Shown in pieces: positions 49,471-49,497 of a DNA stretch of 64,000 nt. Origin of the DNA: Escherichia coli. Its GTDB lineage: Bacteria > Pseudomonadota > Gammaproteobacteria > Enterobacterales > Enterobacteriaceae. The notes under the pieces are model-generated. The model worked only from the letters and a program-made list of their open reading frames with translations. It was not told the origin of the DNA and searched no databases. The stretch lies in assembly GCF_003334405.1 (NCBI RefSeq), contig NZ_QOWM01000006.1; one strand, given 5' to 3'. Position 1 is the first letter of the stretch. Each line of letters starts with the position of its first letter. The position numbers and the translations under genes are program-made.

Positions 49471-49497
49471 GGGGGCCTGCATATGGCCCCCTTTTTC
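49471..49497 (+). terminator. intrinsic terminator/attenuator between rpsB and tsf
   Basis: GGGGGCC (49471-49477) / GGCCCCC (49485-49491), 7-nt loop, TTTTT 49492-49496. Confidence 0.7.

Follow-up and report, generated by a model that had tools for sequence, protein, structure and literature searches.

Why does a pair of genes that is read from a single promoter carry what looks like a transcription terminator between its two members? The question is raised by the spacer between rpsB and tsf of Escherichia coli, where a G+C-rich hairpin is directly followed by a run of T residues. An earlier note, made from the letters of the sequence, had read this arrangement as a partial terminator within an otherwise co-transcribed pair, through which the levels of S2 and EF-Ts could be uncoupled. 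From the sequence and its predicted folds, a comparison across genomes and published maps of transcript ends, we conclude with high confidence that the hairpin is the rpsB-tsf attenuator, a leaky intrinsic (Rho-independent) terminator in the spacer of the operon. This attenuator is already known and has been on record since the first characterisation of the operon; An et al. reportedly were the first to sequence it, in 1981 (Nucleic Acids Res 9:4163).

The window, 64,000 nt of E. coli K-12 sequence, contains the map / rpsB / tsf / pyrH locus, as identified from open reading frames and their translations; map (minus strand) precedes rpsB, and pyrH follows tsf (Table 1). The 281 bases from 49280 to 49560 are identical to those of MG1655, and adding 141303 to a window position gives the position in NC_000913.3, the same offset being obtained from the MG1655 coordinates of rpsB (189874) and tsf (190857). 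A 350-codon open frame runs on the minus strand (49248-50300), antisense to tsf and the spacer; this putative frame most likely reflects biased codon usage in a highly expressed gene rather than a gene of its own. Elsewhere in the window, a match to the HtrA 5'UTR thermometer (Rfam RF02700) occurs at 39541-39586 (77 bits against a gathering score of 52) and is unrelated to the attenuator.

Table 1. Features of the rpsB-tsf spacer and its flanking genes, in window coordinates.
Feature	Position	Strand	Basis	Remark
rpsB CDS (ribosomal protein S2, 241 aa)	48571..49296	+	ORF and translation; MG1655 annotation 189874-190599	Upstream gene of the operon
Hairpin 1, at the rpsB stop codon: ATAAGG (49296-49301) with CCTTAT (49440-49445)	49296..49445	+	Inverted repeat (I6)	Split by ERIC in K-12
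ERIC (enterobacterial repetitive intergenic consensus) element	49303..49436 (about)	+	Primer matches, inverted arms	In the rpsB 3'UTR; not part of the terminator
Hairpin 2: GACCAGG ... TTTGGTT	49447..49469	+	Minimum-free-energy folds	Directly 5' of the terminator
Attenuator/terminator hairpin: AGGGGGCC - TGCATAT - GGCCCCCT	49470..49492	+	Sequence, folds, 3' end of Rfam CssrA, gamma-proteobacterial conservation	
Interrupted U-tract: TTTTT CAC TTTT	49492..49503	+	Sequence; mapped RNA 3' end at 49497 (MG1655 190800)	
Hairpin 4	49506..49532	+	Folds, RNAalifold	On read-through RNA, 3' of the attenuator and 5' of the tsf ribosome-binding site
tsf Shine-Dalgarno GAGGA (49542-49546) and CDS (EF-Ts, 283 aa; 49554-50405), downstream gene, transcribed by read-through only	49542..50405	+	Sequence, ORF, MG1655 annotation	

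The attenuator is intergenic and has the same orientation as the genes on either side. Its arms (49470-49477 and 49485-49492) read A-GGGGGCC and GGCCCCC-T and form a stem of eight pairs, seven of them G-C and one A-U, closed by a 7-nt loop. The G-C stem and TTTTT run described in the earlier note are indeed present, and the distances it gave hold as well: 175 nt separate the end of the rpsB stop codon (49296) from position 49471, and 57 nt separate 49497 from the tsf ATG (49554). The end coordinate that it assigned, 49497, needs a small correction, since hairpin and T run are where it placed them but the five T residues occupy 49492-49496 (the first of them paired with A49470), and base 49497 is a C, one base past the run. 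The sequence after the hairpin reads UUUUUCACUUUU. The site thus shows what defines an intrinsic terminator, a G+C-rich stem-loop with a U-rich tract directly 3' of it, the tract in this case being short and interrupted.

The predicted free energy of the hairpin is -17.6 to -18.5 kcal/mol (z = -2.95 against dinucleotide shuffles, with 1/200 shuffles equally stable). When the full 3'UTR was considered in a partition function, the stem pairs formed with a probability of at least 0.999, with and without the ERIC element alike. A loose terminator pattern is not significant alone, with 8 sites in a 4-kb stretch as compared with 4.3 +/- 1.8 in shuffles. Strong terminator hairpins, defined by at least seven pairs, at least six of them G-C, and at least five T in eight positions, numbered nine on the two strands of the 64-kb window as compared with 1.0 +/- 1.0 in dinucleotide shuffles, and are about nine times commoner than in shuffled sequence.

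Three further hairpins and a repetitive element surround the attenuator. Hairpin 1 is short and unbroken (TAATAAGG...CCTTATTA) in an E. coli that lacks ERIC and in other gamma-proteobacteria, and it is the ERIC insertion that interrupts this conserved structure across the rpsB stop codon. The consensus of ERIC elements is about 127 bp long. In the spacer, matches to the primers ERIC1R and ERIC2 stand back to back (49351-49372 on the minus strand and 49373-49394 on the plus strand, three mismatches each, no such match being expected by chance), and the element has 27-nt imperfect inverted arms. This ERIC-PCR primer pair has been used together in 233 papers. The traits of an ERIC/IRU were all observed, namely an imperfect palindrome with a conserved central inverted repeat, a transcribed intergenic site, and presence/absence polymorphism: about 1330 of 5425 complete E. 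coli genomes (~24%) are without the element, their spacer being 134 instead of 257 nt long. Hairpin 2 occupies a place at which an AACCA...TGGTT hairpin occurs in Enterobacterales, Aeromonas, Shewanella and a gamma-proteobacterial MAG. For hairpin 4, an RNAalifold comparison of five Enterobacteriaceae revealed that in 5 of its 11 pairs both bases change and pairing persists, and that its flanks, TTTTCACTTTTA and CATCT..CCGAGGATTTTAGAATG, are invariant or nearly so; the former, which lies by the U-tract, is invariant in all five.

The terminator half of the spacer was present once per genome in 5425 of 5426 complete E. coli genomes, with at least 99% identity in 5410 of them. To look beyond the species, we sampled one genome per species carrying EF-Ts (80 loci), and found an S2 homologue directly adjacent upstream of tsf on the same strand in 79/80, so that nearly all of the sampled loci have rpsB and tsf as neighbours. 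A GGGGCC/GGCCCC hairpin with a T-rich run, located 30-80 nt before tsf, was detected in 18 loci, each from a different species, comprising Enterobacteriaceae, Yersinia, Photorhabdus, Pasteurellaceae, Vibrionaceae, Aeromonas, Shewanella, Rheinheimera and a marine MAG; the loops vary freely. In an alignment restricted to the arms, 88% of the cells pair; a shift of the partner by 1-3 columns lowers this to 19-64%. Four of the nine pairs changed on both sides, a level reached by 8/500 shuffles; for example, A-U and G-C pairs of E. coli are replaced by C-G and A-U in Vibrio-type stems. The covariation signal is modest, as there is little variation in the strongly conserved stem, and each sequence was put in register by its own fold. 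A MAFFT alignment of the hairpin region, in which E. coli-type and Vibrio-type stems fall into different registers, was left out of the pair counts. A covariance model (R1) recovered the hairpin in 16 loci, but its alignment (A4) was rejected in favour of the arms-only one because it had taken in minus-strand matches of the near-palindromic stem as well as unrelated terminators (L031, L066 and L078).

Independently of homology, we scored rpsB-tsf spacers for terminator-like sites (a stem of at least six pairs, at least four of them G-C, and at least five T in eight positions). Such sites occurred in 14/32 gamma-proteobacterial spacers and in 8/37 spacers from other phyla, as compared with 0.5 +/- 0.7 in the shuffles of either group. 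A leaky terminator between rpsB and tsf is widespread across bacteria.

Published transcript ends place an RNA 3' end at this very position. The earlier note had named a lack of 3' ends at about 49497, together with equal rpsB and tsf transcript levels, as the outcome that would speak against its reading; in a curated Term-seq table (PMC7815308), a 3' end is found at 190800 (+), which is window position 49497, in the context ...GGGGGCCTGCATATGGCCCCCTTTTTC. Average read counts at this end were 17496 in LB at OD 0.4 and 1964 in LB at OD 2.0, and the position appears three times in the supplementary file, whose three tabs correspond to three growth conditions (PMC7815308). No position 19080x appears in the Rho-termination table of the same study, which is weak negative evidence only. 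SMRT-Cappable-seq, which captures 5'-triphosphate transcripts from end to end, assigned two termination sites to the rpsB start site at 189712, one at 190800 and one at 191745 (PMC6131387). The earlier proposal of a partial terminator inside a co-transcribed pair agrees with both of these datasets and with the account in PMC2834685, in the passage citing Aseev et al. 2008 (RNA 14:1882), by which the single rpsB promoter yields an rpsB and an rpsB-tsf mRNA. The legend of a ribosomal protein operon figure likewise includes the symbol 'att-attenuator' (PMC10931766). The published data establish the position of the 3' end, the two transcript classes and partial read-through. Rarity in shuffles, conservation and mapped 3' ends all speak against a chance hairpin, a reading that was rejected.

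How much transcription passes the site is reported differently by different methods. By Northern analysis, the monocistronic rpsB mRNA terminates at the attenuator and about one third of the transcripts read through (PMC2834685, in its summary of Aseev et al.). In the long-read data for M9, 1340 reads begin at 189712, with 232 ending at 190800, 906 passing it and 42 ending within 50 bp of it, so that 906 of 1180 informative reads, or 77%, read through (PMC6131387). For rich medium, the 190800 row of the same study lists 63 / 16 / 852 reads (Supplementary Data 1, Rich_TTS). Columns 7 and 8 of this sheet ('reads passing through' and 'reads within 50 bp') look swapped, given that 191745 is reached by 732 reads with this start site and that extension has a median of 1226 bp; read-through in rich medium would then apparently be about 92%. 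The Northern value of ~33% thus conflicts with 77% (M9) and apparently ~92% (rich). These methods measure different quantities, the Northern reporting a steady state that also depends on decay. Size selection during preparation of the SMRT-Cappable-seq library favours longer transcripts (preprint version of PMC6131387), and the 1.1-kb rpsB species may be under-counted in such libraries.

At the other end of tsf, a hairpin at 50418-50435 lies directly 3' of the stop codon. It is terminator-like when scanned on the minus strand, where it reads AGCCGCCCTCAGGCGGCT and then CCTTTTTGAT; on the plus strand, TCTTTTTGTG comes next, and judging by its letters the hairpin may serve as a terminator in both directions. 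By SMRT-Cappable-seq, rpsB-tsf transcripts end at 191745 (window 50442), and a sizeable share of the reads runs on into pyrH-frr. The Term-seq lists of PMC7815308 contain no 3' end at 19173x-19174x, the region of the tsf terminator.

The following course of events would account for these observations. RNA polymerase starting at the single rpsB promoter would transcribe rpsB and its structured 3'UTR, and the G+C-rich hairpin would fold in the wake of the enzyme when the active site holds the weak rU:dA hybrid formed by the U5 run. A fraction of the complexes would then release a monocistronic rpsB mRNA ending at 49497, and the remaining ones would read through, producing an rpsB-tsf mRNA or sometimes a longer rpsB-tsf-pyrH-frr mRNA. 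The short, interrupted U-tract is a plausible cause of the incomplete termination; we infer this from what is generally known of intrinsic terminators, and it fits the trend seen by SMRT-Cappable-seq, where the poly-U tract is better defined at sites of low read-through (PMC6131387). The amount of tsf mRNA would be lowered relative to rpsB mRNA by a roughly fixed factor, and the hairpin would cap, and probably stabilise, the 3' end of the rpsB mRNA as well as short 3'UTR fragments ('CssrA' RNA). Most likely, this leaky intrinsic terminator works constitutively and sets the rpsB:tsf mRNA ratio. We favour constitutive action because folding and partition function calculations on 3'UTRs with and without ERIC revealed no competing fold or antiterminator.

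Expression of tsf depends mainly on the rpsB promoter and on autoregulation by S2 (PMC10931766). This autoregulation acts at the 5'UTR, where it breaks the coupling of transcription and translation and so reduces the bicistronic mRNA, and it is not exerted through the attenuator hairpin (PMC10931766). The S2-responsive rpsB leader corresponds to the t44/tff RNA (Rfam RF00127; 48457-48543, 83.5 bits), and a Term-seq 3' end falls within it at MG1655 189839 (window 48536), 35 nt 5' of the rpsB start codon. What the earlier note said of S2 and EF-Ts levels therefore stands in part. A lowering of tsf relative to rpsB is supported, but 'uncoupled' is too strong a word, because no competing structure or sensor was found and tsf relies mainly on the rpsB promoter and S2 autoregulation; the attenuator scales tsf relative to rpsB and does not make the two genes independent.

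The mapped 3' ends would also be produced if the hairpin were mainly a barrier to 3' exonucleases, or the product of processing, with longer transcripts being trimmed or cleaved and the hairpin protecting the rpsB 3' end while transcription does not stop there. Term-seq and SMRT-Cappable-seq report 3' ends and not release events, and true termination and trimming back to a stable hairpin look alike in both. The mapped end is just 5 nt past the stem, a distance in keeping with trimming, most primary transcripts pass the site in the long-read data, and nanopore direct RNA sequencing reveals stepwise 3' ends along with processed species in the rpsB-tsf operon. However, the T5 run directly after the hairpin, superfluous for a pure stability element, is conserved together with it across families, and sites combining a hairpin with a T run are more than 20-fold enriched in rpsB-tsf spacers. 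The literature, as far as represented by PMC2834685, treats the site as an attenuator, and termination and protection are compatible roles. We therefore regard it as very improbable that protection is the main function and that transcription does not stop.

A further element overlaps the hairpin. The Rfam family CssrA (RF02798) matches over its full length (1-111) at 49382-49491 with 136.2 bits (gathering score 93), the matched stretch being composed of the 3' half of ERIC, hairpin 2 and the attenuator, which forms the final helix of the family (model positions ~89-111). The name stands for chromosome-encoded Shigella sRNA A, and the RNA was seen as a band of ~110 nt in Shigella flexneri (Peng et al. 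2011, PMC3071730); a table in that paper puts cssrA between map and rpsB, and the Rfam model matches the rpsB-tsf spacer instead. Long-read start sites of tsf-containing transcripts are listed, with no read counts, at MG1655 190440, 190705 and 190794, or window 49137, 49402 and 49491 (PMC6131387 Supplementary Data 2), of which the second falls 20 nt inside the CssrA family and the third within the 3' arm of the terminator.

It could accordingly be argued that the hairpin is primarily the terminator of an independent sRNA gene, CssrA, with a promoter of its own in the spacer, and that its effect on rpsB-tsf is incidental. The strong family match and the northern band speak for this, as does the start site at 190705, from which an RNA ending at 190800 would measure 96 nt. 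Against it, the ends of CssrA were not mapped in the source paper, the 3' end having come from a terminator prediction and the 5' end having been calculated from the size of the band (PMC3071730), and a consensus scan of the plus strand from 47500 to 51500 detected no sigma-70-like site that could serve as an internal promoter for CssrA or tsf. The 5' half of the family lies inside ERIC and is missing in about a quarter of E. coli genomes, the model dropping below threshold in an E. coli without ERIC (53.6 bits) and in other genera (29-42 bits), whereas the hairpin is conserved far beyond the strains that bear ERIC. A free-standing gene is in our estimate about as improbable as trimming; CssrA is most likely a fragment of the rpsB 3'UTR, arising by processing, capped by the attenuator and made up by half of ERIC sequence.

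The least probable of the readings considered has the attenuator under regulation: read-through would be switched by alternative RNA structures, by translation of a small ORF or by protein binding, as in the L4-controlled S10 leader or in leader-peptide attenuators. The apparent difference in read-through between M9 (77%) and rich medium (~92%) is in its favour, but this difference could reflect library size selection, and the columns of the rich-medium table seem to be swapped. At the end of ERIC, the 7-nt AAGGGGG (49428-49434) is complementary to the 3' arm of the terminator, yet in the partition function it did not compete with the stem, whose pair probability of at least 0.999 regardless of ERIC leaves no thermodynamically relevant competitor; it was rejected as an antiterminator. 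A 31-codon ORF (MKGESPYRPGSTRLVRGPAYGPLFHFYICAV; 49425-49520) crosses the hairpin, and the counterpart terminator of S. aureus lies inside a short ORF, ORF X (PMC4608709). The E. coli ORF, however, starts inside ERIC, has no Shine-Dalgarno sequence discernible by eye or other obvious ribosome-binding site, and is absent from E. coli without ERIC and from other genera, so that it is probably not a gene. Autoregulation by S2, as stated above, is located at the 5'UTR.

A more elaborate possibility joins the stop-codon hairpin, the AACCA/TGGTT hairpin and the GGGGCC terminator into a single conserved three-hairpin module, which would tune read-through to the growth condition, in line with 77% in M9 and ~92% in rich medium in one long-read dataset, and yield a functional, stable CssrA-like 3'UTR RNA whose size and stability are altered between strains by the ERIC polymorphism. 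We consider this unlikely.

The constitutive attenuator, as we read it, is one of the factors that determine how much S2 mRNA is made per EF-Ts mRNA from a single promoter, a standard tuning of stoichiometry in an operon of the translation apparatus. It was seen in every modern 3'-end dataset examined, and finding it again is no new biology. Although known in the literature, it is poorly annotated: in 2018, the end at 190800 was labelled 'novelTTS' against the RegulonDB version then in use (PMC6131387), and RefSeq carries no annotation at the site. Such elements are not confined to this operon.

The rplL-rpoB attenuator is likewise a partial terminator inside an operon that favours an upstream ribosomal protein gene, at a different locus and with a different sequence. 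The t1 terminator of rpsO, located before pnp (PMC2834685), is also an intrinsic terminator between two cistrons, and there too the upstream ribosomal protein gene is transcribed more; rpsO-pnp differs from rpsB-tsf in locus and sequence, and in having a second promoter and RNase III processing. Rfam's CssrA shares the attenuator hairpin as its last helix, but unlike the attenuator it is filed as an sRNA gene and has as its 5' half ERIC sequence, which many E. coli strains and all other genera examined lack. In Streptomyces coelicolor, the rpsB:tsf ratio is 2:1 according to the passage of PMC1779546 that cites it; the original authors could not deduce the mechanism and, as related there, speculated on attenuation by an inverted repeat resembling that of E. 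coli. The same passage mentions an attenuation mechanism proposed for Spiroplasma citri. The rpsB-tsf operon of S. aureus (Khemici et al. 2015, PMC4608709) also contains a leaky Rho-independent terminator, giving a major rpsB transcript of ~900 nt and a weaker read-through transcript of ~2000 nt; unlike in E. coli, however, the terminator is unrelated in sequence and embedded in ORF X, and a separate promoter for tsf is predicted downstream of it. The closest counterpart is the E. coli attenuator of Aseev et al. 2008, which, as described in PMC2834685, is the same element in the same spacer of the same organism, with no substantive difference from the hairpin analysed here.
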